The notes under the pieces: model-generated
Told to the model about the DNA's origin: nothing
Seen by the model: the letters and a program-made list of their open reading frames with translations, nothing else
Databases searched by the model: none
In this document: positions 1,947 to 51,087 of the stretch, one piece after another
How positions within the stretch are numbered: position 1 is the stretch's first letter
Layout of the letters: every line of letters starts with the position of its first letter
NCBI GenBank assembly: GCA_043803745.1
Contig: JAZDJS010000015.1
Location: 17,573-81,572, forward strand
DNA length: 64,000 nt
Direction: 5' to 3'
Source: an archaeon
GTDB taxonomy: Archaea > SpSt-1190 > DYHY01
Position numbers and translations under genes: made by a program

Positions 1947-2672
1947 CTATTTGACCAGCTCATAATAAATCCGCTCAGATAGCCCTCCCCAGGAGAACCC
2001 TCCGGAAGATTTTCTTTTCTCCGTTATCTTGAAAATTCCCTCTGAGACCCCTTTAGAAAGATGATAATATGTCAGCCTTAGAGACAGCCTACCGTAGCGA
2101 GTAACATATTTTTTGTTTATTTGATATCCATACAAGGGGGTTGTTTCCCCGATGAAAATCTCGACAATATTGTCCCTTATTTTACTCCGGGTCTTGATTC
2201 GTTTGTTTTCGGCAACCGGCTTTCCTTCGGGATCAATTGCGCCGCTTTGAATCCTTTCGGATGAGATAACAAGTCCGTCTTTTGCAAGGGTAAGGGGGAT
2301 TTCAATCACAATCAATGGCGGTTTGCCTTTTGAAACGATAAACGCGTTCAGGGAAGCGGCAGCTTCCTTGCCCCCGCTGGTAGTTGCTAAAAATCGTAAT
2401 CCGGGTGTTAATGAAAGATTCTCAAGATTGCCCTCCGATGCAACTATTTGGAACGGTATCTTCCGTGACAATAGAAAACGTTCGATCTTTTCCTTGCGGA
2501 ATTCAAACGAGGTTTTTCCGGCGTTTTTCACAATTCCGACAAGCAACTTTTTTCCTATTGAACTGCAGGAAATCAAAAAATTTCGATGTCCTTTGTGAAA
2601 AACCTCGAAGGTTCCGAAACAGAGCAAATCAGGTTCTTCGTCACCCGTTTGTTGCTTTTCGATCCTGACCAT
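1947..2672 (-). CDS. Phosphopantetheine adenylyltransferase-like nucleotidyltransferase fused to a C-terminal winged-helix domain
   Basis: N-terminal FGTFEVFHKGH (HIGH motif) and ISSERI..GAIDPEG; C-terminal ~80 aa IRDNIVEI..YGYQI..SLRLTYYHLSKG..FSWG..ERIYYEL has a wHTH pattern. Confidence 0.7.
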   Translation of the reverse strand: MVRIEKQQTGDEEPDLLCFGTFEVFHKGHRNFLISCSSIGKKLLVGIVKNAGKTSFEFRKEKIERFLLSRKIPFQIVASEGNLENLSLTPGLRFLATTSGGKEAAASLNAFIVSKGKPPLIVIEIPLTLAKDGLVISSERIQSGAIDPEGKPVAENKRIKTRSKIRDNIVEIFIGETTPLYGYQINKKYVTRYGRLSLRLTYYHLSKGVSEGIFKITEKRKSSGGFSWGGLSERIYYELVK

Positions 2673-2680
2673 TCAAGTCA

Positions 2681-2910
2681 CCCTTTCGTTTCCTCTGAAG
2701 TTTGGGTTGTTGGTTGGTTGTATTGTTATTTATATTGTTTTCTATATAGAAATATTGAATTTAAACCACTTTCTAGCAAACCTCCACTCGAAACAACGGA
2801 GACAGAGTACAAAGGTTTCCACTGGAAACGAAGGTCAATCCGAACAAGTCCATCGGAAGTGGAGGTTGAGTCACAATAAAAGTTAAAAACCCCTTTTTCC
2901 ACTGGAACCT
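2681..2910. other. Replication origin (oriC): ORB elements flanking an AT/GT-rich DUE
   Basis: Minus-strand ORB CTTCAGAGGAAACGAAAGGG (2681-2700); DUE ~2701-2765; plus-strand ORBs CTCCACTCGAAACAACGG (2782-), TTCCACTGGAAACGAAGG (2817-2834), TCCATCGGAAGTGGAGG (2849-), TTCCACTGGAAC (2897-); directly upstream of cdc6. Confidence 0.9.
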
Positions 2911-2939
2911 GCGTTCTCTGAAGGTGAAGACAGTCTAAA

Positions 2940-4142
2940 ATGCAATCCTCTCTGAAAGAAATGTTTCAAACATATCTCAACAGGCAGTCAATATTCGTCA
3001 ACAAGTCTGCACTGGACGACGAGTTCCTTCCGGTAAACCTTCTTCATCGGGACCGAGAGCAGAAGCAGATTGCGAGTATCCTTCTTCCAGCCCTCCGGGG
3101 GGAAAAACCCTCGAATCTGTTCATATACGGGAAAACCGGGACGGGCAAGACAATTGGCGCGAAATCAGTTTGCAGGGAACTGGAAGGGTTCGCCCGGGAG
3201 AACAATCGGCCAGTGAAAATCGTGTATGTCAATGCGCAAATGAAGAAAGTCGCGGATACGGAATACCGGCTGATATCTTCAATTGCCCAGCAGTATGGCG
3301 TTAATCTGCCTTCGACAGGGCTCCCAACTGAAAAAATATACAAAGCGTTCATATCCGCGGTTGAGAACACAAAAGCGCTCTCAATAATAATAATTGACGA
3401 AATAGACAACGTAGTACGGAAATGTGGAAACGATCTTCTTTACAATCTTATGCGGCTGAACAGCGAACTTTCAGAATCCAGGGTAAGCGTCATCGGAATT
3501 ACCAACGACCTCAACCTGTTGAAATTCATCGATTCGCGGGTGAAAAGCAGCCTTTCGGAAGAGGAACTCGTTTTTCCGCCGTATGATGCAAACCAGCTAA
3601 GCGACATATTGAGTTCACGCGCGGAAATTGCGTTCCTTCCAAACGCGTTGGACCAGGCAGTAGTTCCCAAATGTGCTGCATATGCTGCAAAGGAACACGG
3701 GGATGCGCGGCGGGCTCTCAATATCTTGAGATTGGCTGGGGAGCTTGCCGAGCGTTCTGGAGCGTCAAAAATCGAAGCGGAACACGTTGATGCAGCTCTT
3801 GACAAGCTCGACACCGAAACCGTAGTGGAATTTGTGAAAAGTCAGCCTCTGCAATCGAAAGCGGTTTTGTACAGCATTCTTTTCCTGCGGAATTCGACGC
3901 CTGATTTCACAACGGGCGACATTTATGACAAATACAGGCAAACCTGCACCCTTTTCAGGCAGAAATGCCTTACGCAACGGAGAGTGTCTGATTTGGTCAC
4001 TGAACTCGCAGGGGTCGGAATAATCTCGACGAACCTGATTTCCAAGGGCAGGTATGGCAGAAGCAAGACGGTTGACATCTTGATGAACGGACCGACCCTT
4101 GACAAGGTAGTCAATGTCCTCAAAGGGGACTTTTCTTACTAG
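2940..4142 (+). CDS. cdc6: Orc1/Cdc6 replication initiator
   Basis: Walker A GKTGTGKT, Walker B IIDEID, DSRVKSSL, HGDARRAL, C-terminal wHTH with GRYGRS. Confidence 0.97.
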   Translation: MQSSLKEMFQTYLNRQSIFVNKSALDDEFLPVNLLHRDREQKQIASILLPALRGEKPSNLFIYGKTGTGKTIGAKSVCRELEGFARENNRPVKIVYVNAQMKKVADTEYRLISSIAQQYGVNLPSTGLPTEKIYKAFISAVENTKALSIIIIDEIDNVVRKCGNDLLYNLMRLNSELSESRVSVIGITNDLNLLKFIDSRVKSSLSEEELVFPPYDANQLSDILSSRAEIAFLPNALDQAVVPKCAAYAAKEHGDARRALNILRLAGELAERSGASKIEAEHVDAALDKLDTETVVEFVKSQPLQSKAVLYSILFLRNSTPDFTTGDIYDKYRQTCTLFRQKCLTQRRVSDLVTELAGVGIISTNLISKGRYGRSKTVDILMNGPTLDKVVNVLKGDFSY

Positions 4143-31328: not shown

Positions 31329-32006
31329 TTATAAAACTGACACAAGCCCTGCCGCCTTAAGCCCTTCGGCAAGCCCTTCGGCAAGCCCTTCGGCAAGCCC
31401 TTCGGCAAGCCCGTTGAAGACGAATTGAACTGCAATCGCGGCAAGAACAAGCCCCATTACGCGGACAACAACCTTCACCGCAATTGGCCCCGTCTTTTCA
31501 AATACGCGCGCCCCGAGCTCGATGGCAAACCAGGACAGCAGGAACGCCGCGAGAATCGCGACAAGCACAAGCGGTTTTTGTACGAGAGTCGCCGAATCGA
31601 AAAGAACAATCGCGGTGGTTATCGCGCCTGGGCCGGTAAGGAGCGGAATTGCCATCGGCGTCACGACGACATCTTCGATTTCCCTTGCAAGTTTGTGTTC
31701 TTCGTCGCTGTATTCGGTTTTCGTGTGCTTCCCGAAAAGCATCTCGAGCGAGATTATGAAAAGGAGAATCCCCCCAGCAACCTTGAATGAGTACATCGAA
31801 ACTCCTAGCGCATCGAAAAAGAACTTTCCGGCAACGGCAAGCGTCATAAGCACGCTGCACGCGATAATCAGCGCCTGCCTGACCATCTTCTTTCTTGCCC
31901 GGGCCTTCCGCAAGTGCAAGATTGAGCCAAATATGGGGATGTTCGCGACGGGGTCTATTATCAGAAAGAGGGTGATTGTGCAGTAAGCGAAGAAGCCAAA
32001 GTCCAT
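31329..32006 (-). CDS. marC: MarC family membrane protein
   Basis: IIDPVAN, FKVAGGILLF, PMAIPLLTGPGAI, RVMGLVLAAIAVQF. Confidence 0.92.
   Translation of the reverse strand: MDFGFFAYCTITLFLIIDPVANIPIFGSILHLRKARARKKMVRQALIIACSVLMTLAVAGKFFFDALGVSMYSFKVAGGILLFIISLEMLFGKHTKTEYSDEEHKLAREIEDVVVTPMAIPLLTGPGAITTAIVLFDSATLVQKPLVLVAILAAFLLSWFAIELGARVFEKTGPIAVKVVVRVMGLVLAAIAVQFVFNGLAEGLAEGLAEGLAEGLKAAGLVSVL
31359..31412. repeat. 12-bp tandem repeat (AAGCCCTTCGGC) x4.5 encoding (GLAE)n
   Basis: Perfect copies read directly. Confidence 0.95.
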
Positions 32007-34980: not shown

Positions 34981-35421
34981 ATGCACAGAGGCGCAAGCGA
35001 GAGAATACTTGATTTGCTTGAGCGCGATGCTTCCCTGACAAACCGCGAAATAGGGGAAAAACTTTCGCTTCCCACGACAACAGTCCACAACATAATAAGG
35101 CGTCTTGAGAAGGACGGTACAATAAGAAAATATTCGATTTTGATAGACAAGGAGAAGCTCGGATATCCGATACAGGCAGTAATTTTAATTAACACAACCT
35201 TTGCCGGAAGCAAGTTGCCTGCACACGCAGAAATAGCCGCCAAAATAAAGAAAATCGGAAAGGTTGATTGCATACATTCGATAACTGGCGAGTTTGACCT
35301 CCTTGTACGGGTCGCAGTCCGAAGCACAAGGGAACTTGGCGAATTTGTTACAAAAGTGCGCAAAATTGACGGAGTAGTTAAAACGGTAACCTCAGTGGTT
35401 CTTGAGGAACTCAGCATTTGA
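34981..35421 (+). CDS. Lrp/AsnC transcriptional regulator
   Basis: ILDLLERDASL..EIG..TTVHN.IRRLE.DG.I; ITGEFDL; KTVTSVVL. Confidence 0.92.
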   Translation: MHRGASERILDLLERDASLTNREIGEKLSLPTTTVHNIIRRLEKDGTIRKYSILIDKEKLGYPIQAVILINTTFAGSKLPAHAEIAAKIKKIGKVDCIHSITGEFDLLVRVAVRSTRELGEFVTKVRKIDGVVKTVTSVVLEELSI

Positions 35422-35616
35422 CCTACGTGCAGTGAACTTATGTAATTGTTGCGACGGAAAAAAGGTGTTCGGCGAAGCCCATTTGAGATTAAACAGATTC
35501 CTGCGCCTATTCAGCCTGTTGAAGACTGAATAAACAACCTTTCACTTCAGTTGGGCTGAAAAAAGAACGCATTCTTCTTGAAATTGGCGAAAAAGACAAC
35601 TCAATTCAAATTAGAT

Positions 35617-38367
35617 TCACTTGCTGTCGGCATTGTTCCAATAAATCCTCGTTCTTGCGAAGGTTTTCTCCGCTTTTAGTATTTCAGAAATCAGCTCCGT
35701 GTAATCTCGCAAAGCTGATTTGGCAAGAACCCTTGCAGCGGTTTCCGGGCCAATTCCATATCCTGCAAGAACCAGGAACGTTTTTTGTCCATAGCTCAGG
35801 TAAAGATTTGCCGTTCTTTTCGATTTTTCAAGAATGCTCGCGTCCGCCTTGCTCAATGGGCCTTTCGCTGAAAGTATCGGGAGGTTTTCCCGTTTAAGAA
35901 TCCCAAGTAGCTTTGAATTGCAAATAGGGCAGGCAAAATCAATGCTTTTTGCAGTAAAAATTCCCAAACCCTTCTTGCAATTAAGGCAGGCTAACTGGAA
36001 TTTTTTCCTTTCCAGCCGTTTTTTGACCATTTCCCGAACTTTTCCCGCCGGAAGACCGGAGAAAACGAGTTCGGGACTATATCTTTCGATAAACCTCATT
36101 GAAAAAGGCGTCGGCGCCCCAAGTATCTCAATTTTCAAAACGCCGGATTTTATCCGTTTGACAAGTTCCCGGGTTTTTTCAATATCCAGTTTTTCGAAGA
36201 AATGTTCGTTAATTGTCTCTTCGAAAACCGGAGTCTCCGAATAAACGTCAACAAGCCTCTGTATCGACATTTTGGAGAATACCGCATCTTTCGAAACAAC
36301 CCCGAATTTCTTTGCAATCTGAATGAAACGCTGCTTGAATTGCGGACTGTTCCTGACAATTGTTCTCAGAGTCTGCCCGATTTTGTCCTCTTTAATTGAA
36401 AGAATGGTTTCCTTGATGCTTTCCTTGGAATAAGTTCCCGGAAACTTTATGAAAATCCTATATGCATCTGTGCGAAGCCCAATCGAATCGCCATATTTTA
36501 GCGAAAAATATGCTGAAAGGAGCCTCCCAAGGGTTTCGTTGACCTTGTTTCCGAAAAAGCTCCGTATTACCACAAAGTTTTCGCCGCATTCAACCCCCAA
36601 AATAGTCTCTTGAAAGTTTCCGCACAGTTTCAGGTCATTTTCTATCTTCTTGGCGCAATTGGCGTCGATTATCTTCAAATAGTCGGTTTTCTTCGAGGGC
36701 CAACCAGATCTAAGGCAATTAACCTCAATTGCAATGGAATAATCAACAGGCATAAGCTCTCCCGACCATTCGGGCACATTATATGCAACAGAAGTCTCCT
36801 CTACGAAAACTTTGTTGCCTTCTTTTGAAATGACCTTCCAATACGCGCCCCGACAAATAAATGAAGCACCCAGTTCAAGTTCCGACGAGAATTCTTCATC
36901 GATTTGGGCTATTTTTTCCTTGCTCTCGAACTTTATGACGTCAAACTTCCGGCTGTCCTTAATCATTGACAAATTGGAGAAGAAGAAGCTGAAAGCAGGC
37001 TTTTTAATCGAGATGACCCCGTTTTCGAGGATTCTCAGGATTCTGAGGTTGATAAGAAGATTGAGGATTTCAGTGAACTCCTCCCACGGAAGATTTTTGA
37101 AAGGAACCGCTCTTTTTATTGTAGCGAACGCGTTTTCAACGCTATAGCAGCCTTCAAAGCCAATTCCGGTTAATTGATTGGCAACAACATCGAAGGAATT
37201 TTCAATAAACTCCATTGGCTCAAGGCGCTTTGAAAGGGCAAGCTTTGCAATAACCGCGGCTTCTAATGCATCATCCTCATCAATAACAACAATTTCTCCC
37301 CTTGAAATTTCCGAAAGCCGGTGCCCGGCCCGTCCAATTCGTTGAACAAGGGAATCAACACGTCGTGGAGACATATATTGGATTACCAAATCAATATGTC
37401 CGATGTCAATGCCAAGGGCGAGAGAAGATGTTGCGACAACAGCTACAAGATCCTTGTTTTTCAGCTCTTTTTCAGTTTTTAGGCGAGATTCTTTTGACAA
37501 AGAGCTGTGATGGATACCGAATTTGCTGCTAATCGCTTTCAGCTTAGAACCGAGAATTTCTGCACTATCTCTGGTATTGACAAACACCAAAACGCCCGCA
37601 TTTTCCTTTACGCGCCGCGCTATGAAGTTTATTTTTGAGTAGAACCAATCTTTTTCCTCAGGTTCTTCAGTGTCTTGGACTTCCTCTTCAGGCCAAACAA
37701 CCGATATTTCAGTCTTCTTTTGGTCTTTTGACTCTATTATCAGGACTTCAGATTCATTACTTCCTTTTAGAATCTCTGCAACCGTCTTTGGATTAGAAAT
37801 TGTTGCTGAAAGGCCGATTCTTACAAAATCTCGTCCGAGTTGATTCTTTAGGCGTTCTAGACAAATTAACAGCTGTTCTCCTCGCTTTTCCCCTATTATT
37901 TCGTGTATTTCGTCAATTATGACGAAATCAACGTTTTTTAAATGTTCTTTGATTTTTTTCCCAATAATGATTGCTTGAAGGCTCTCAGGAGTTGTTATGA
38001 GCACGTTTGGCGGATCCTTTGTTTGCAAGGTTCTTTGGTTAGTTGGGGTGTCGCCATGGCGGATGTCAATGTCGATTCCAAGATCGTTACCAATTTCAAT
38101 GATGCGTTCGAAAAGATTTCTATTCAATGCTTTCAATGGAGTTATGTAAAGGCAAGAAATTCGTCTTTCCGGGTTTCTCGACAAAATATCAAGGATTGGG
38201 AGCATAACTGCTTCTGTTTTCCCGCTTCCAGTTTCGGAAACAACTAAGACAGACCTTTTTTCAAGTATGTGCTTTATAGTATCTTTTTGCACATTTGTTG
38301 GTGTTATGAAGCCCCTTTTCGAAAGAATTTGTACTAGTTTTTTTGAAAGAAGTTCGAAAGACACCAC
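35617..38367 (-). CDS. lhr: Lhr-family SF2 helicase with a C-terminal Zn motif
   Basis: SETGSGKT, TPLKAL, TTPESL, DEIH, SAT, QRIGRAGH; CLNC..CPIC; GIGPETAARVL. Confidence 0.93.
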   Translation of the reverse strand: MVSFELLSKKLVQILSKRGFITPTNVQKDTIKHILEKRSVLVVSETGSGKTEAVMLPILDILSRNPERRISCLYITPLKALNRNLFERIIEIGNDLGIDIDIRHGDTPTNQRTLQTKDPPNVLITTPESLQAIIIGKKIKEHLKNVDFVIIDEIHEIIGEKRGEQLLICLERLKNQLGRDFVRIGLSATISNPKTVAEILKGSNESEVLIIESKDQKKTEISVVWPEEEVQDTEEPEEKDWFYSKINFIARRVKENAGVLVFVNTRDSAEILGSKLKAISSKFGIHHSSLSKESRLKTEKELKNKDLVAVVATSSLALGIDIGHIDLVIQYMSPRRVDSLVQRIGRAGHRLSEISRGEIVVIDEDDALEAAVIAKLALSKRLEPMEFIENSFDVVANQLTGIGFEGCYSVENAFATIKRAVPFKNLPWEEFTEILNLLINLRILRILENGVISIKKPAFSFFFSNLSMIKDSRKFDVIKFESKEKIAQIDEEFSSELELGASFICRGAYWKVISKEGNKVFVEETSVAYNVPEWSGELMPVDYSIAIEVNCLRSGWPSKKTDYLKIIDANCAKKIENDLKLCGNFQETILGVECGENFVVIRSFFGNKVNETLGRLLSAYFSLKYGDSIGLRTDAYRIFIKFPGTYSKESIKETILSIKEDKIGQTLRTIVRNSPQFKQRFIQIAKKFGVVSKDAVFSKMSIQRLVDVYSETPVFEETINEHFFEKLDIEKTRELVKRIKSGVLKIEILGAPTPFSMRFIERYSPELVFSGLPAGKVREMVKKRLERKKFQLACLNCKKGLGIFTAKSIDFACPICNSKLLGILKRENLPILSAKGPLSKADASILEKSKRTANLYLSYGQKTFLVLAGYGIGPETAARVLAKSALRDYTELISEILKAEKTFARTRIYWNNADSK

Positions 38368-38409
38368 TATGCTTCCCTTAAACTAGTATAAAATCATATG
38401 TTTTTGCTG

Positions 38410-38832
38410 TTGATATCATTGACATCAATGATATCAATCTCATATTAGTGACATTGGATTGAATCTCGGGTAACAAAAGACCCCTCACATACCACCCTCT
38501 CGAAAATTGTAGTGGTTACACATACCTAACATACCTATATGCCCACAAGCTATCGCAACTTCAAACACATAAAAAGTCTCTAACATTTCATCTGTTTTTT
38601 TCGTATTTGTACTGCTTTCAAGGCCAAATGATGGGTTGACGGGCAGTTGATTGATTGTTTGCGGGCATTCCCTCAAGTTAGTATTGATATCATTAATGTC
38701 ATTCATTTTATTGATGTCAATAACCTCATTGACTCAGAAAAAAGGCAAAGTATAAATACTTTTCCACATTTTTAATGTCAATGACCTCATTGATATCAAA
38801 AACTTTTTGATGTTGAAATAGGATTAACCTCA
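38410..38832. repeat. Phased arrays of 9-bp units (consensus WTRAYRTCA/WTRACCTCA)
   Basis: 3 units at 38410-38436, 6 at 38684-38736, 3 at 38772-38798, 1 at 38824-38832. Confidence 0.85.
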
Positions 38833-38847
38833 ACAACAACAATTAGC

Positions 38848-39195
38848 TTAAATTCTCTCAAAGGATAGCCCCCTACCGTTACGGAAATCGACATAAACGC
38901 GGTTCGCTCGTTTTTTTAAGCTTTCCTTGTCGAAAATGACCCTTTCGCAGCCGGGCTTCCCTTCGGAAGCCCGTTCAAACACAATCTCTCGAAAAGAAGC
39001 ACATTCTGGAACTATGTGTTTGGAAGCAATATCTTTTTCAATGAAGAGCTGCGAATGAAGGAAAATAAGATCCTCCACAAAATTGCCACCGATGCAGAAA
39101 CATGATTTTCTAAACCATTTGGGCGCTTTGGGAGCGAGTTCACGTTCTTTCATCCAATCAGTCAATTTCCGAGCTTCCAAACTAAAGAAAGACAA
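38848..39195 (-). CDS. Hypothetical protein, possibly the 3' part of a frameshifted gene
   Basis: 115-aa ORF; a TATA box near 39310 precedes a short upstream ORF in another frame (MDETVGTEK..PVVFL*). Confidence 0.35.
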   Translation of the reverse strand: MSFFSLEARKLTDWMKERELAPKAPKWFRKSCFCIGGNFVEDLIFLHSQLFIEKDIASKHIVPECASFREIVFERASEGKPGCERVIFDKESLKKRANRVYVDFRNGRGLSFERI

Positions 39196-39340
39196 CGGGA
39201 GGACTCAAACCGACGGGTCCCTGATGTGTTACTTCAAGAAAAGTAAGCGTTTTTTCAGTTCCAACAGTTTCGTCCAATCAGATCGCGTTTCGACAGAATA
39301 ACAGCCCTTTTTATAGTCGTCTTCAGACCTTGAAAGCAAA

Positions 39341-39416
39341 TGGTAGCCCCAGGCAGATTCGAACTGCCGTCCCAGGCTCCAGAGGCCCGTATCCTTGACC
39401 GCTAGACGATGGGGCT
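39341..39416 (-). tRNA. tRNA-Gln(CTG), CCA encoded
   Basis: AGCCCCA/TGGGGCT acceptor stem (A1-U72), anticodon loop CT-CTG-GA, GTTCGAATC T-loop. Confidence 0.95.
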
Positions 39417-39829
39417 TTCCCAGATTTCGCAAGGCGCCAACCTCTTTAATAAATCTTTGCCCCAGTCAAGACACATATTCGAAAACTTCGTTTAGTATTG
39501 GAGAGGGGTGGCCATAATATATGTTTGGAAAATGTCAAATGAAACTAAGCATCCCTTGACAATTAACGTAACCATTGTATCGGAGCCGACAGGTTGCAAA
39601 TAATTCAACAACAAACTGTTATAATTTACCCTAGTATGGTATAAAAAAATATGGTTTTCCAGTCCTAATAGGGCGAAATATCTACCTTCAAGCACCTGAA
39701 GGCGCTGTTTATTTGTTTTGTGGGCTAATATCTTGACCCTTGGGTTGGTTCGTGTCACTCAATAACGGCCTCCCTTAGATACCCCGAGGCCTGCCCCCGG
39801 TTGGAAGCTTCATTTTGGATGAGAACCCA

Positions 39830-40201
39830 TCATCCCCGCGCAAATCTGCGCCATTTCTCAGCTTTTTCTTCAAGTTTATTTGCGAAATTATGACTTAGGA
39901 AATATCCGGAATATTTGCTTTCCCGGTCAATTAACCCCCCACGCTCAAGCGTTGAAACAATTCGATATATTGTCGCCCTTGGCCCCTGAACCTTGAGCTC
40001 CGAAGCAAACATTTGTCTGCCTGATCTTGAGTAGCATCCCGCAGCTTTCATTTCAAGTATTATCTGTATTGCAATCTCAACCTGGCTTTTTGCAACGAAA
40101 TCCTCCAGAAGCAGTTTCAGGAAGTCTCGATTTCCTGAAAAGCCATCCGTATCGGTTTTCTGAGACGAACGTTCAGTTTCCAAGAAAACACCCTCTTCCA
40201 C
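39830..40201 (-). CDS. Winged-helix domain protein
   Basis: MFASEL..PRATIYRIVSTLERGGLIDR..YFLS. Confidence 0.7.
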   Translation of the reverse strand: MEEGVFLETERSSQKTDTDGFSGNRDFLKLLLEDFVAKSQVEIAIQIILEMKAAGCYSRSGRQMFASELKVQGPRATIYRIVSTLERGGLIDRESKYSGYFLSHNFANKLEEKAEKWRRFARG

Positions 40202-40416
40202 AAACAGACCATTTCCATATTTTTGAGACGAATATATATGTCTGCAGTTGAAGCCCCATCATTTGCCAAACCCTCCTGAAAAGAATGAAATCGCCTGTTT
40301 TTCGAGCATCGTCTCAGCTAACCGGGATTGGACTATTTATTCATTGACCAGAGCATTCCTCTAATATTTCAAAAAAAGAAAAAGCCTAAAAGCAACAACT
40401 TGTCATAAAAAGCAAC

Positions 40417-40845
40417 ATGTCAACAACAGATTTGCCAATTTCTGAAATAACCATCAGGAAGTTCGAACGGCCCGAGAATATTGACAAAAAAGTGCTAATA
40501 AGGCGATTTTGCATTTCCCTTGGTTTGATAAATTCAGGAGATAATCGTGCTGGCTGCGTTGACGTTTTTGAGGTAATTTTCAATTCAAAAGAACCTTTAA
40601 GTGCCGAAGAAGTGTTTGAATCGCTTGGGAAGAAACTTGCACTCTCAGGAATACGTCGGCATTTGCGGAGGCTTGAAAGAATAAGGATTTTGGAACACCG
40701 AAACTCCAAATATCAGATAGCGGAAGGTCGAAATCTCTCTTATTGCCTGAAATACGTTGTGAAGGACTACTTGATTGAAGACATTTTTAATCGGATATCA
40801 GAATACGGCGAAAAGCTTCAAAATTTGCTCGATTCGGAGAAATAA
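40417..40845 (+). CDS. Winged-helix domain protein (uncharacterised archaeal family)
   Basis: PISEITIRKFERP..FCISLGL..LSAEEV..SGIRRHLRRLE..YQI. Confidence 0.75.
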   Translation: MSTTDLPISEITIRKFERPENIDKKVLIRRFCISLGLINSGDNRAGCVDVFEVIFNSKEPLSAEEVFESLGKKLALSGIRRHLRRLERIRILEHRNSKYQIAEGRNLSYCLKYVVKDYLIEDIFNRISEYGEKLQNLLDSEK

Positions 40846-40847
40846 GG

Positions 40848-41135
40848 TCACAGTTTGTCGAATGAGATATATATCCCTTCCATAGAATGTGCTATTTCTT
40901 CCCCGAATTTCGTCAAAATAACGTGTTTTATGCGCCCTTTTTTCTCGAATTCAACAAGCCCCAGTTTCTTCATATCCTGGAGAATCCGGACGCAATGGGA
41001 ATACGTGCAATCAGCTTCCTTCGCAAGAATCGAGGCATATTTCTTCAGCCCCTTCAGTTTCGTTATGATTCTCGCCGGTTTGTCATGCAGAAACATTAGC
41101 TCGAGATCTTTTCTTGCCCCCATTGCCATTTTCAA
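40848..41135 (-). CDS. MarR-like winged-helix protein
   Basis: YASILAKEADCTYSHCVRIL..GLVEFEKKGRIKHVILT..G. Confidence 0.85.
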   Translation of the reverse strand: MKMAMGARKDLELMFLHDKPARIITKLKGLKKYASILAKEADCTYSHCVRILQDMKKLGLVEFEKKGRIKHVILTKFGEEIAHSMEGIYISFDKL

Positions 41136-41237
41136 TAAACCCCCAAATTCTCCTATATTCTAAAAGATTGTGACAATCACTATATAACCGTTTTGATGCA
41201 ACCATTGAGTTAGTATATTTTTACTGCAAGGATGATA

Positions 41238-42296
41238 TTAAAAATACCACTTCAGCGCAATGTTCTTTATTATCTCCATCAAAAAGGTGAAGATTAGTCC
41301 CATAATCACAGAGGTAACAAGATTTGTCAACCCAAGAGTGGGCTCTAAAAAGTAGCTCGCAGCAGACTTAAGGACCCAAACGGAAACCCCGACAAGCACC
41401 CCTGTGTTGATGTAATGGAGCATAAGAGAGAAATTTGGGAAGGAATCAATCGTTTTCCCGGAAACAACTGAAATGGCCGCCATCAGGAAGAAGAACAGCG
41501 AGCCGTAGAGGAACGAGAAAACCGTGTTGACAATGCTGGTGCTCCCCGCCATCTGCTCGAGTCCTTTGTAAATCGCGACGCCAACCATTACAAGGGAGAC
41601 AACATACGTAAGCAAGGAAAACCTCATGAACTTGAAGGATGTCTTGAAATCGTTCACGAACCCGAGAACCGCGCTTTCAAGCTGGAAACCGCGTAGGAGC
41701 AGATAGCCGCCGACAACGGCAAAAATTATCCGCCAGCCGGACATTCCGAAAAGGGCAAGCATTATTGCGACAATTCCCGGAACGCCAAGGACAAGCCGCG
41801 CCATTTCCTTGTCCTTCGTTATCTTCTTCAACCAATCCATTGCCGTGTAATAGGTGTTTTCAAGCCGCTCCGCCTGTTTCACTACAAGACGCCGTATCCC
41901 AGTTATCTTAATCCTCGACTGCAGGAGCGGAAGGACCTGGTCGTCCTCGGCGCCGTCAGTCACGAGGATTGCGCCGCTGTATTTTCCGCCTTTCAGAACG
42001 TGTTCAATTTGCTCGGAAACGATTCTGTCAGAAGCAACCCCGACCTTGACCGAGCCAGTGACAACCGCAACCTCGCCCTTGACCTCCTTTGCGACCCGGA
42101 CCGCCTCAAACATTGTGTTTGAATCGTTGTCAGCGGGGTCCGCCAGGGAAAGGGCAATAGCAGCTTCAAGAACCTTTCTTTCCCCGACAATTGGGCCGTC
42201 AAACTGGGTCTTCCTGCCGAGATCGTCGTCCCTATCGACGCACATTACAATGAGCCGGTCGCTGATTTTTTCACTCTGTTGCCGCAAAATTAACAT
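41238..42296 (-). CDS. DUF373 family membrane protein
   Basis: CVDRDDDLG, DPADNDSN, TDGAEDD, VVKQ..LE.TYY, C-terminal TMs. Confidence 0.88.
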   Translation of the reverse strand: MLILRQQSEKISDRLIVMCVDRDDDLGRKTQFDGPIVGERKVLEAAIALSLADPADNDSNTMFEAVRVAKEVKGEVAVVTGSVKVGVASDRIVSEQIEHVLKGGKYSGAILVTDGAEDDQVLPLLQSRIKITGIRRLVVKQAERLENTYYTAMDWLKKITKDKEMARLVLGVPGIVAIMLALFGMSGWRIIFAVVGGYLLLRGFQLESAVLGFVNDFKTSFKFMRFSLLTYVVSLVMVGVAIYKGLEQMAGSTSIVNTVFSFLYGSLFFFLMAAISVVSGKTIDSFPNFSLMLHYINTGVLVGVSVWVLKSAASYFLEPTLGLTNLVTSVIMGLIFTFLMEIIKNIALKWYF

Positions 42297-49215: not shown

Positions 49216-49946
49216 TTTTCCGAGCCACCGCCGCTGACAATCAGGCCATCCTGGAGGCGAATCTTCCTCCTTGCATAGCTTGCGATGTTCGGGTCGTGGG
49301 TGACCATTATTATTGTTGTCAAATCATTCTCGTTGATATCTGAGAGGAGGGAAAGGATTTCCCCGCCAGTCTTGCTGTCCAACTGGCCCGTGGGCTCATC
49401 GGCAAGGACGATGTCAGGGGAATTTATCAAAGCGCGGGCAATCGCGACCCGCTGGTTCTGGCCTCCTGAAAGTTCGCTCGGTCTCCTTTCAAGCTTGTCC
49501 CCAAGGTCAAAGCGCTTAAGGAGCGAAATAGCCCTTTCCCGATAGCCGTCCTCGACATCGCCAAAGGGCATTACCGGAACGAGGACGTTCTCAAGGACAT
49601 TCAGCGTCGATATCAGGTTGAACGTCTGGAAAATTATCCCAACGTTCTCCCTCCTGAACTCGGAAAGTTCGTCATCTTCAAGCTCCCCGAGATTCTTGCC
49701 GCAGACGGAAACCCGTCCTTCGGTCGGCCTGTCAACCCCCCCGACAAGGTGGAGGAGCGTGCTTTTCCCGCACCCAGAAGGGCCCATTATCGTCACGAAT
49801 TCCCCTTTCTTCACAGTTATGTCAACCCCCCCGAGAGCCCAGACTTTTCCGACTTCGTAGAACTTTTTCACCCCCGAAACAGTTACAATAATCTCAGGCT
49901 TTTTCGTTTTCTCAGTCGACAACCCTAAACGCCTCCACAGGTTCAA
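49212..49946 (-). CDS. LolD/MacB-type ABC ATP-binding protein
   Basis: GPSGCGKST, LSGGQNQRVAIARAL, LADEPTG, VTHD. Confidence 0.95.
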   Translation of the reverse strand: MNLWRRLGLSTEKTKKPEIIVTVSGVKKFYEVGKVWALGGVDITVKKGEFVTIMGPSGCGKSTLLHLVGGVDRPTEGRVSVCGKNLGELEDDELSEFRRENVGIIFQTFNLISTLNVLENVLVPVMPFGDVEDGYRERAISLLKRFDLGDKLERRPSELSGGQNQRVAIARALINSPDIVLADEPTGQLDSKTGGEILSLLSDINENDLTTIIMVTHDPNIASYARRKIRLQDGLIVSGGGSEK

Positions 49947-51087
49947 GCGATGCGGCTTTTCTTGCGGGAATCAATCCTCCAACAAGTCCGAGGAAAATGG
50001 CAAAACCAACTGCCTGAAGAACAATCTGCCAGGTCAGTACGGGCGTCAGCGCGCCCTTGAATACCTGGGGAAGCGCTATCTGCGTTGAGAAGAGCCCGAC
50101 TGCAAGCCCCATCGCAGCACCTACAACGCTTATCCCAACGCTTTCGGCAACGATAAGCTTCATTACATCTCCGTTGAGCCAGCCGACAGCCTTGAGAACT
50201 CCGATTTCCTTCGTCTGTTCCATAACGGACATTATCATTGTGTTGAGTATCCCGACGCCACCTATGAATGCAGCGATCCCGGCAATCACCCAGGTGACCG
50301 TCTGGAGCGTTGACGTGAATGTCGAAAGCGTTGAGACAAAAGCCCTTGCATAGCTAGGGTCTGCGTTGTTAATCAGGAGTTTAATCTTCCTCTCAAGGAG
50401 TTCTGTCTGCCCCGGGCTTGTTGGGAGGACCTGCACAGCGTTTATCCTGTAGTTCGGAAGGTTCCCCACGCTCTGGACCTCTGCGAACGGAACAACAAGG
50501 TTGTCAGATGTTTCGCCGCCGCTTTCACTCTCGTAAATCCCGACAACATCGTAATCATAATCTTCCCCTTCAAAAGAGAATGTTACCGAATCCCCGATTC
50601 TCTTGTTCATGGCATTGGCAAGGACCCTCCCAATTACCGCGCTCCCCCGCTCATCTTCCTTCAGGAACCTGCCTGCAACTATCTTCGTATATGTGCTCGA
50701 GAGCCGCCTCTCCTTGTCCGGGTCGACGCCCACAAGCCCAGCCGCGCCGCCCCCGCCGCCAAAAATCCCGCCCCCGCTCCGATATCCCTCAACGGTTCCG
50801 ATTAGGAGGATCTGCGGAGCTGCAAGCTGCACACCCGGTATTTTCTCAATATCCTCGATAACCGAGATGTCAAGGTTGCTTGTGCTGGGAGGTCCGAATG
50901 TCCCTTCAGCAACAACGTAAATAGTGCCCCCTATCGAGCTTGCGAACTCGTCAGTTGTCCTTTTCAATCCCTGGGAAACCGAAACAAGGGAAATGATCAT
51001 TGCAACGCCTATCATTATCCCTAGGGCAGAAAGGAAGGTCCGAAGCTTCCTCTTGGTAAGGTTGCGTATTGCGAGGGTATAGTACAT
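49912..51087 (-). CDS. MacB/FtsX-like ABC permease (paralog of 48034-49215)
   Basis: Same motifs; shared GVDPDKERR, TKIVAGR.LK. Confidence 0.92.
   Translation of the reverse strand: MYYTLAIRNLTKRKLRTFLSALGIMIGVAMIISLVSVSQGLKRTTDEFASSIGGTIYVVAEGTFGPPSTSNLDISVIEDIEKIPGVQLAAPQILLIGTVEGYRSGGGIFGGGGGAAGLVGVDPDKERRLSSTYTKIVAGRFLKEDERGSAVIGRVLANAMNKRIGDSVTFSFEGEDYDYDVVGIYESESGGETSDNLVVPFAEVQSVGNLPNYRINAVQVLPTSPGQTELLERKIKLLINNADPSYARAFVSTLSTFTSTLQTVTWVIAGIAAFIGGVGILNTMIMSVMEQTKEIGVLKAVGWLNGDVMKLIVAESVGISVVGAAMGLAVGLFSTQIALPQVFKGALTPVLTWQIVLQAVGFAIFLGLVGGLIPARKAASLEPVEAFRVVD

Follow-up and report, generated by a model that had tools for sequence, protein, structure and literature searches.

A conserved array of 9-bp-phased repeats beside winged-helix genes in a class of DPANN archaea

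Plasmid centromeres of the tubC/TubR and parC/ParR types contain several short direct repeats within one locus, grouped into two or three blocks that enclose or adjoin a promoter, and a small dimeric protein coats these repeats cooperatively and represses transcription. The repeats of parC are either continuous or split around the promoter, and in tubC, where the reader is the small winged-helix protein TubR, which also acts as a repressor, there are two or three blocks (PMC5016525). In archaeal chromosomes, the SegB protein recognizes a 13-bp palindrome (TCTAGA-S-TCTAGA), for which the accessible part of PMC12284271 describes 39 chromatin immunoprecipitation peaks and about 46-49 chromosome-scattered, mostly intragenic sites, together with a clustering of sites near SegB's own genes and a proposed link between chromosome organisation and segregation. 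Chromosome organisation and segregation in archaea outside the Sulfolobales are largely unknown, as is the control of the few DNA-repair and cell-cycle genes of DPANN archaea with their tiny genomes. Here, a set of short repeat arrays is described that lies beside three small winged helix-turn-helix (wHTH) genes in a 64,000-nucleotide stretch of archaeal DNA (the window). The window is part of a 90-kb contig (C15, JAZDJS010000015.1) of a 51-contig, 1.23-Mb assembly (G000, GCA_043803745.1) that is about 90% complete. In public records, its relatives carry the labels Undinarchaeota, Altiarchaeota or simply archaeon, and the genome was therefore assigned to a DPANN lineage. The arrays are a real and strongly conserved cis element, previously undescribed within the literature searched, supplements aside; none of the terms 'origin of replication', 'winged', 'Lhr', 'tandem repeat' and 'centromere' appears in the main text of the founding Undinarchaeota paper (supplements aside).

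Reading of the non-coding gap at positions 38368-38847 identified 9-bp-phased units in three blocks of 3, 6 and 3, and these 12 in-phase positions together with one isolated copy amount to 13 units. Array 1 (38410-38437) consists of three 9-bp units at 38410, 38419 and 38428, which form a 28-bp palindrome with two 13-nt arms (38410-38422 and 38425-38437) that are 100% complementary and separated by 2 nt; Tandem Repeats Finder (TRF) reported a period-9 array at 38411-38438. Array 2 (38684-38737) has six in-phase positions (38684, 38693, 38702, 38711, 38720 and 38729), four of them good and two degenerate, and array 3 (38772-38799) has three 9-bp units at 38772, 38781 and 38790, followed by the isolated 13th unit, TTAACCTCA, at 38824-38832. 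In an alternative register, the unit is a 7-bp palindromic core, TCAWTGA, plus two variable bases. The central spacer between arrays 1 and 2 (38438-38683) contains short blocks that are kept in three congeners, a CTCACA word at about 38484-38492 and a second 9-mer, ACATACCTA, that occurs twice at 38520-38537. An initial annotation of the window, made from the letters alone, had listed the 13 units in runs of 3, 6 and 3, the 28-bp palindrome and the doubled second 9-mer at 38520, and re-reading arrived at the same picture.

The arrays are unique in their genome. On both strands of the window, the motif WTRAYRTCA has 17 matches, as compared to 3.85 +/- 2.08 in 100 shuffles (maximum 10), and 14 of the 17 fall within 38410-38799. 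The initial annotation had also suggested scanning the genome for phased arrays of this motif; in the whole 1.23-Mb assembly, clusters of at least three matches were found in the gap arrays only. A 3-unit pattern allowing up to 3 mismatches gave 7+7 matches in G000, all inside the array locus, and the reversed-pattern control gave none in this genome. Short or palindromic units arranged head-to-tail with a period below the helical turn are also known from the met-boxes of MetJ (8-bp tandem) and the heptads of omega (7-bp), where dimers pack side by side and bind cooperatively. The arrays almost certainly serve as a cooperative protein-binding platform. MetJ and omega are ribbon-helix-helix proteins, whereas the products of the genes neighbouring the arrays are winged-helix proteins, and no ribbon-helix-helix gene was detected by Pfam among the scanned open reading frames (ORFs) of the locus.

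The gap is bounded by lhr (35617-38367, minus strand), which is divergent from the arrays and encodes an Lhr-type helicase of 916 aa (DEAD, 1.9e-39; DEAD_assoc, 1.1e-28; WH_Lhr, 2.6e-14). Beyond the other end of the gap lies the gene for tRNA-Gln(CTG) (39341-39416, minus strand), with the arrays located 3' of it in the window and in most relatives, followed by wH123 (39830-40201, minus strand), wH142 (40417-40845, plus strand) and wH95 (40848-41135, minus strand). The three wHTH genes, whose family matches are weak-scoring, are located within 1-2.5 kb of the arrays, in agreement with the initial annotation. Conservation was analysed in a class set of 17 genomes (G000-G016) that includes family f3, with small genomes, and family f4, with two genomes of 3.6-3.8 Mb; L-numbered loci are metagenome or other loci of relatives, and the judgement on the presence or absence of arrays covered the set apart from G002 and G003. 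Arrays were read beside tRNA-Gln and wHTH genes in 12 of the 17 genomes, namely G000, its congener G001, G004, which has the same order as G000, and the f3 genomes G005, G007, G009, G010, G011, G012, G014, G015 and G016, and also in the metagenome loci L126 and L127. For a 13th genome, G013, there is a pattern match only, with 3 units ~560 bp past its wH123-type gene. Three families of the class share the gene order DUF373-wH95-wH142-wH(slot 3)-tRNA-Gln-arrays, slot 3 being the position adjoining tRNA-Gln that is occupied by wH123 in the window. Genomes of 0.6-1.2 Mb have kept an array of 150-450 bp, with 12 to about 25 units, together with the wHTH trio across at least three families. The initial annotation had suggested that the arrays accompany the wHTH genes and had named their absence beside orthologous wHTH genes in relatives as counter-evidence; the linkage persists throughout the class. 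Family f4 kept wH95, wH142 and lhr, and no arrays were found near wH95 or lhr in its two genomes.

When 13 array regions were pooled, 12 same-strand pairs of TCAWTRA were spaced at 9 bp and none at 1-8 or 10-17 bp; for the looser core TCAWT, the spacing was 9 bp in 20 pairs and 10 bp in 9 pairs. The density of the core in the array region is 5-20x that of the rest of the locus, a difference that reached p<0.01 for 10 of the 12 genomes, these p-values being descriptive as the regions were picked after viewing. The congener G001 shares an identical gene order, tRNA-Gln and alignable arrays, and a three-way alignment of G000, G001 and L126 showed a mean column identity of 78%, with array 1 alignable in all. 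In a DNA search of the gap in 41 relatives, G001 was the sole homologous match, and three others were short chance matches. A comparison of G011 and L039 showed the array stretch to be 72% identical versus 38-52% for most other gap DNA (one 50-bp bin reached 60%), which means that selection acts on the units themselves. Lhr was found in 10 of the 17 genomes and not found in 7, and the gene flanking the arrays varies among relatives (lhr, a DtdA-type gene or NAC). No remnant of lhr was detected in the array gap of lhr-less genomes (tblastn, nothing below E=2.7). The arrays are an old, conserved cis element that is linked to the wHTH genes rather than to lhr. As a separate observation, the whole-genome Lhr matches in G005, G006, G008, G010, G014 and G016 each have one in-frame stop (TAG or TAA) within the matched span, which may represent read-through upstream of the start codon.

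The functions considered for the arrays were ranked with an operator array first, a centromere-like or organising site second and an origin-related site third. The explanation we tentatively favour is that of a single-copy cooperative operator array, read by a neighbouring wHTH protein and controlling promoters embedded in it. Archaeal promoters carry a consensus of a transcription factor B recognition element (BRE) and a TATA element, with a TATA-to-start spacing of about 26 nt. A TATA-like element at 38386-38393 (minus strand) was placed by eye for a putative leaderless lhr transcript, the lhr start codon that aligns with G001 being 38364, and array 1 ends 17 bp upstream of this element. A second, near-palindromic BRE/TATA-like element (38747-38763, TATA-like part 38752-38759), which we infer to be a promoter, is flanked by arrays 2 and 3 and kept in G001 and L126. 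By eye, both TATA-like elements are conserved in three congeners, and such elements follow the arrays in other families too. In G004, a perfect 3-unit module (G004:C3:2054-2078, L206) is situated in a 340-bp gap that separates ftsZ (plus strand) from a Cys-rich ORF of 99 aa (minus strand). No class genome yielded another strong second site, and this module has the appearance expected of a second transcription-factor operator. The blocks abutting promoter-like elements, together with the ftsZ-side module, favour the transcription-factor reading. Candidate regulator genes linked to the sites, as expected of an operator array, are also present, and they stay linked throughout the class. Dimers of a small winged-helix protein from one of the adjacent genes would bind cooperatively to modules of three units (about 27 bp), just upstream of the putative leaderless lhr BRE/TATA and on either side of the second TATA-like element. 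The occupancy of these modules would set transcription from the embedded promoters, with repression or activation occurring via filament formation or looping.

The best candidate reader of the arrays is most likely the slot-3 wHTH protein (wH123 type), with wH142 as the second candidate. This assignment is based on the slot-3 gene being present wherever arrays were seen, on the wH123 type being found in 13 of the 17 genomes and in neither of the two genomes of the array-less family f4, and on two units in G004 that are located directly upstream of the slot-3 start codon (L026 10628-10655). The wH123 protein is a fast-evolving small wHTH with a weak TrmB match, and its AlphaFold2 model (predicted local distance difference test score, pLDDT, 73.7) has generic ArsR/SmtB-like winged-helix matches. 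The AlphaFold2 model of wH142 (pLDDT 82.7) is an ordinary winged helix with a long C-terminal helix and generic matches only. Foldseek searches with these two models returned no match at E<=0.001 and no specific match to TubR or ParR. The wH142 gene was found in 16 of the 17 class genomes and its relatives in 129 metagenome loci, with a tRNA-Gln context in 4 of the 80 loci kept. The third protein, wH95, is a pan-DPANN wHTH with an invariant recognition helix (DCTYSH) and has relatives in 292 loci, often beside RadA, RPA and DUF373; none of the non-class loci encoding wH95 relatives that were read had such arrays. A PDB sequence search with the three wHTH proteins yielded only one weak match, of wH95 to AF_1382 (2qvo, E 0.0089). 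The locus offers a defined and testable DNA-protein pair from unculturable organisms, consisting of a 480-bp fragment and three proteins of 95-142 aa.

Several observations weigh against an operator array. Five lhr-less genomes (G007, G009, G011, G012 and G015) keep the arrays, and in G011 and G012 these are located within a 1.3-kb gap that is bordered by the 3' ends of tRNA-Gln and NAC, where there is no protein gene to regulate. The retention of the array after loss of the neighbouring lhr speaks for an important role that does not depend on the genes at its flanks. No second array site was found in the G000 genome, hence there is no regulon, and both of its ftsZ genes are without an upstream array. 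Also, 12 to about 25 units are far above the usual number in an archaeal operator. The promoters were read by eye, and a scan for sigma-70 type promoters and terminators, which is unsuited to archaea, gave no excess. In G001 the units have drifted, and the core enrichment is non-significant in this genome (p=0.12) and in G009 (p=0.055). Finally, the wH123 type differs in its recognition helix from one order to another, whereas the DNA core is conserved.

The arrays are at the centre of an AT trough of 6.5 kb (~35000-41500) that is visible at synonymous sites and also present in the congener G001, where it is deeper (26-36% GC versus about 50%; L006 7001-13000). The gap itself has 33.8% GC, and the 1-kb bin at 38001-39000 is the lowest of the window (38.0% GC; window mean 51.5%, sd 4.0). 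The initial annotation had put the 60-nt lines of this region at ~27-28% GC, and those of the gap were measured at 28-48%. Its statement that the AT bias extends into the genes on both sides is borne out by the GC content at third codon positions (GC3), which is 0.42 in lhr, 0.40 in wH123, 0.39 in wH142 and 0.44 in the Lrp gene. This is a drop of ~0.15-0.25 for these four genes; most flanking genes have a GC3 of 0.54-0.67, with DUF359 (0.48) and wH95 (0.51) in between, and hef has 55% GC overall and a GC3 of 0.67. As the trough reaches third codon positions, it is regional and goes beyond intergenic DNA alone; its cause may be either local mutation bias or selection for AT-rich DNA. The milder dip that had been noted around the replication origin (oriC) was likewise seen, the 1-kb bin with oriC (2001-3000) falling to 41.5% GC. 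Within the trough, lhr is 56% identical between the congeners, as compared to 77-83% for the flanking RadA, DUF373 and RPA.

An AT-rich block beside a tRNA gene could also be the trace of a decayed mobile element integrated at tRNA-Gln, an alternative that the initial annotation had itself raised as a possible refutation and to which we give hardly any credence. It would account for the AT-rich island and for two ORFs, 38848-39195 (115 aa) and 39492-39758 (88 aa), both on the minus strand, which have no Pfam or NCBIfam match and no counterpart in G001; these ORFs may be spurious. However, the order from DUF373 to the arrays is maintained across three families, the trough is common to congeners whose proteins differ by 17-44%, and no integrase or other mobile-element match was found among the ORFs scanned, att repeats not having been searched for specifically. 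With the arrays conserved throughout the class, the recent integration of an element at tRNA-Gln is excluded.

Like plasmid centromeres, the arrays consist of short tandem repeats that are gathered at one locus in one to three blocks. It is possible, though doubtful, that the arrays nucleate a wHTH nucleoprotein filament, comparable to those of tubC/TubR and parC/ParR, which marks the origin-proximal region for segregation or compaction, may spread into the AT-rich flanks and relies on a motor encoded elsewhere or on none. With their 12 to about 25 short phased repeats, divided into two or three blocks that surround a promoter-like element, the arrays correspond to the parC/tubC-type architecture described in the source cited above. 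There is one array site in the G000 genome, the arrays persist where the flanking gene changes from lhr to the DtdA-type gene or NAC, and the trough is centred on them in both G000 and G001. In all four genomes with both elements on one contig (G000, G004, G005 and G011), they lie 7-36 kb from cdc6/oriC. This closeness may only reflect the synteny of the replication island, though, and the four genomes are non-independent. The tubC and parC sites are located on plasmids, upstream of an operon for the binder and its motor (TubZ or ParM), whereas the arrays are chromosomal, class-wide and without a linked motor gene. A Pfam scan of the 71 window ORFs found no ParA/SegA, ParM or TubZ-type gene in the locus, which speaks against the centromere-like site read by wHTH proteins that the initial annotation had proposed, and ParA/MinD-like genes are present only on other contigs (C49, C35, C33, C36, C2, C31 and C40). 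The repeat unit is 11 bp in R1 parC and 12 bp in tubC, as opposed to 9 bp in the arrays. The fold matches of wH123 and wH142 are generic, with the pNOB8 centromere binder AspA (4rs8) at rank 17 (E 0.036), and the perfect ftsZ-side module in G004 looks like a promoter operator.

SegB sites resemble the arrays in being archaeal, chromosomal and palindromic. They are scattered, whereas the arrays are phased in tandem at one place, and the ParA-type segA is adjacent in the SegB system, whereas no segA-like gene was found among the scanned window ORFs of the array locus. A SegAB segrosome would be recognized by TCTAGA-S-TCTAGA beside segAB, and the array unit is instead TCAWTGA with a 9-bp period. 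That chromosomes of the class have their centromere or organising centre in the arrays, with a small winged-helix protein that polymerises in a TubR-like manner, spreads into the AT-rich flanks and marks the origin region for segregation or compaction in cells without linked ParA/ParB or SegAB, is by analogy conceivable but unlikely.

The canonical oriC of the window (2672-2940) is located 36 kb from the arrays, beside cdc6 (2940-4142), and includes TTTCCACTGGAA twice, 80 bp apart, further dyads resembling origin recognition boxes (ORBs) and an AT-rich stretch. Like the arrays, archaeal oriC regions are repeat-rich, GC-poor and intergenic and lie in a replication island. It was considered whether the arrays act as iterons of an accessory or Cdc6-independent origin, as had been suggested initially, or as an origin-control site that titrates a replication factor; we regard this as improbable. 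The arrays do lie within an island of replication genes (cdc6, PolD, RPA, RadA, Hef) and in the AT trough, and of 160 DPANN loci, 7 (L146, L158, L181, L182, L188, L086 and L093) have a wH142 relative at a distance of 1-2 kb from a Cdc6-like gene, whose product is 28-34% identical to the window Cdc6. In G012, the arrays are followed by three 51-52-bp repeats, one with a mini-ORB-like core, and G011 has repeats of 52-53 bp; as mini-ORBs, however, the G012 repeats were unconvincing by eye when compared to that genome's own ORBs. Some loci labelled Aenigmatarchaeota carry comparable arrays, phased at 10-11 bp, upstream of an AAA+ gene by RPA and RadA, but the AAA+ protein is not recognisably Orc1/Cdc6. 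In contrast to oriC, the arrays have a different, far shorter unit in strict 9-bp phasing. On reading, neither ORBs nor mini-ORBs were seen in the gap 38368-38847, and its neighbours include no initiator gene (orc1/cdc6 or whiP). The cumulative GC skew, which is weak evidence given its confounding by gene orientation, changes direction along the 90-kb contig at 18-20 kb, at oriC, and not at 56 kb, where the arrays are. A single cdc6 with ORBs and an AT-rich unwinding stretch is present 7-10 kb from the arrays in G005, G011 and G012, and a second origin 7-36 kb from the first would be unusual in a 0.6-1.2-Mb genome. Two Cdc6_C matches were found in G000, one at window 2940-4142 and one on contig C21. 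The C21 gene is more divergent (about 49776-49991, 423-aa frame), and G001 and G004 also have two.

Another possibility considered was that the main product of the gap is a small non-coding RNA or a long lhr leader, with the repeats as incidental promoter or processing signals, and this appears highly improbable. The short blocks of the central spacer that are kept in three congeners, a G-U-rich hairpin predicted on the minus strand only and TATA-like elements facing the spacer would fit such an RNA. Against it, the spacer is not conserved outside the genus while the arrays are, and Rfam detected only tRNA in the window segment and in the loci of four relatives. RNAalifold predicted weak structures for three congeners (-8.0 and -13.9 kcal/mol on the two strands), in which most pairs are invariant and hence uninformative.

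Other pattern matches in the class and beyond were inspected individually. The doublet and triplet matches at G007:C18:2699-2723 and on G013:C38 were rejected as arrays since they are inside TruD coding sequence, and the matches on G002:C44 and G008:C106 look coding too. A strict 7-mer cluster scan of 80 DPANN loci proved too noisy in AT-rich genomes, and its apparent clusters in L037 and L107 were coding or non-array on reading. A lag-autocorrelation scan for 9-bp periodicity was non-discriminating because coding 3-periodicity interferes.

In lhr-less genomes, the arrays are followed by purine-rich repeats with TGTGAG(A/G)G-like words (L028 11700-11870; L029 11930-12070; L124 4500-4680). G012 has three of them at intervals of 51-52 bp, all containing an AGTGA-N8-TCACT dyad, and G011 has repeats of 52-53 bp; the CTCACA word is also conserved in the central spacer of G000. 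In the loci labelled Aenigmatarchaeota (L084 2080-2680; also L050, L075, L090 and L098), two blocks of GTGAA-N-TTCAC with a 10-11-bp period and up to 9.8 copies flank a region with several CTCACA words. These arrays are situated directly upstream of a gene for a 387-aa AAA+ ATPase, which is followed by PRC-barrel, RPA, RadA and a wH95 homologue, and the region may be the origin of that lineage.

The replication and repair island in the window comprises a RecJ/GAN-like DHH protein, cdc6, PolD DP1 and DP2, NAC, TruD, lhr, the three small wHTH ORFs, DUF373, a histone, three RPA-like ORFs, RadA and Hef. Domain and tRNA scans reproduced the earlier gene calls for Lhr, the three wHTH ORFs, the histone, Hef, Cdc6 and tRNA-Gln(CTG). 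Elsewhere in the window (31359-31412), a 12-bp unit, AAGCCCTTCGGC, is repeated in tandem in 4.5 copies within a MarC-family ORF.

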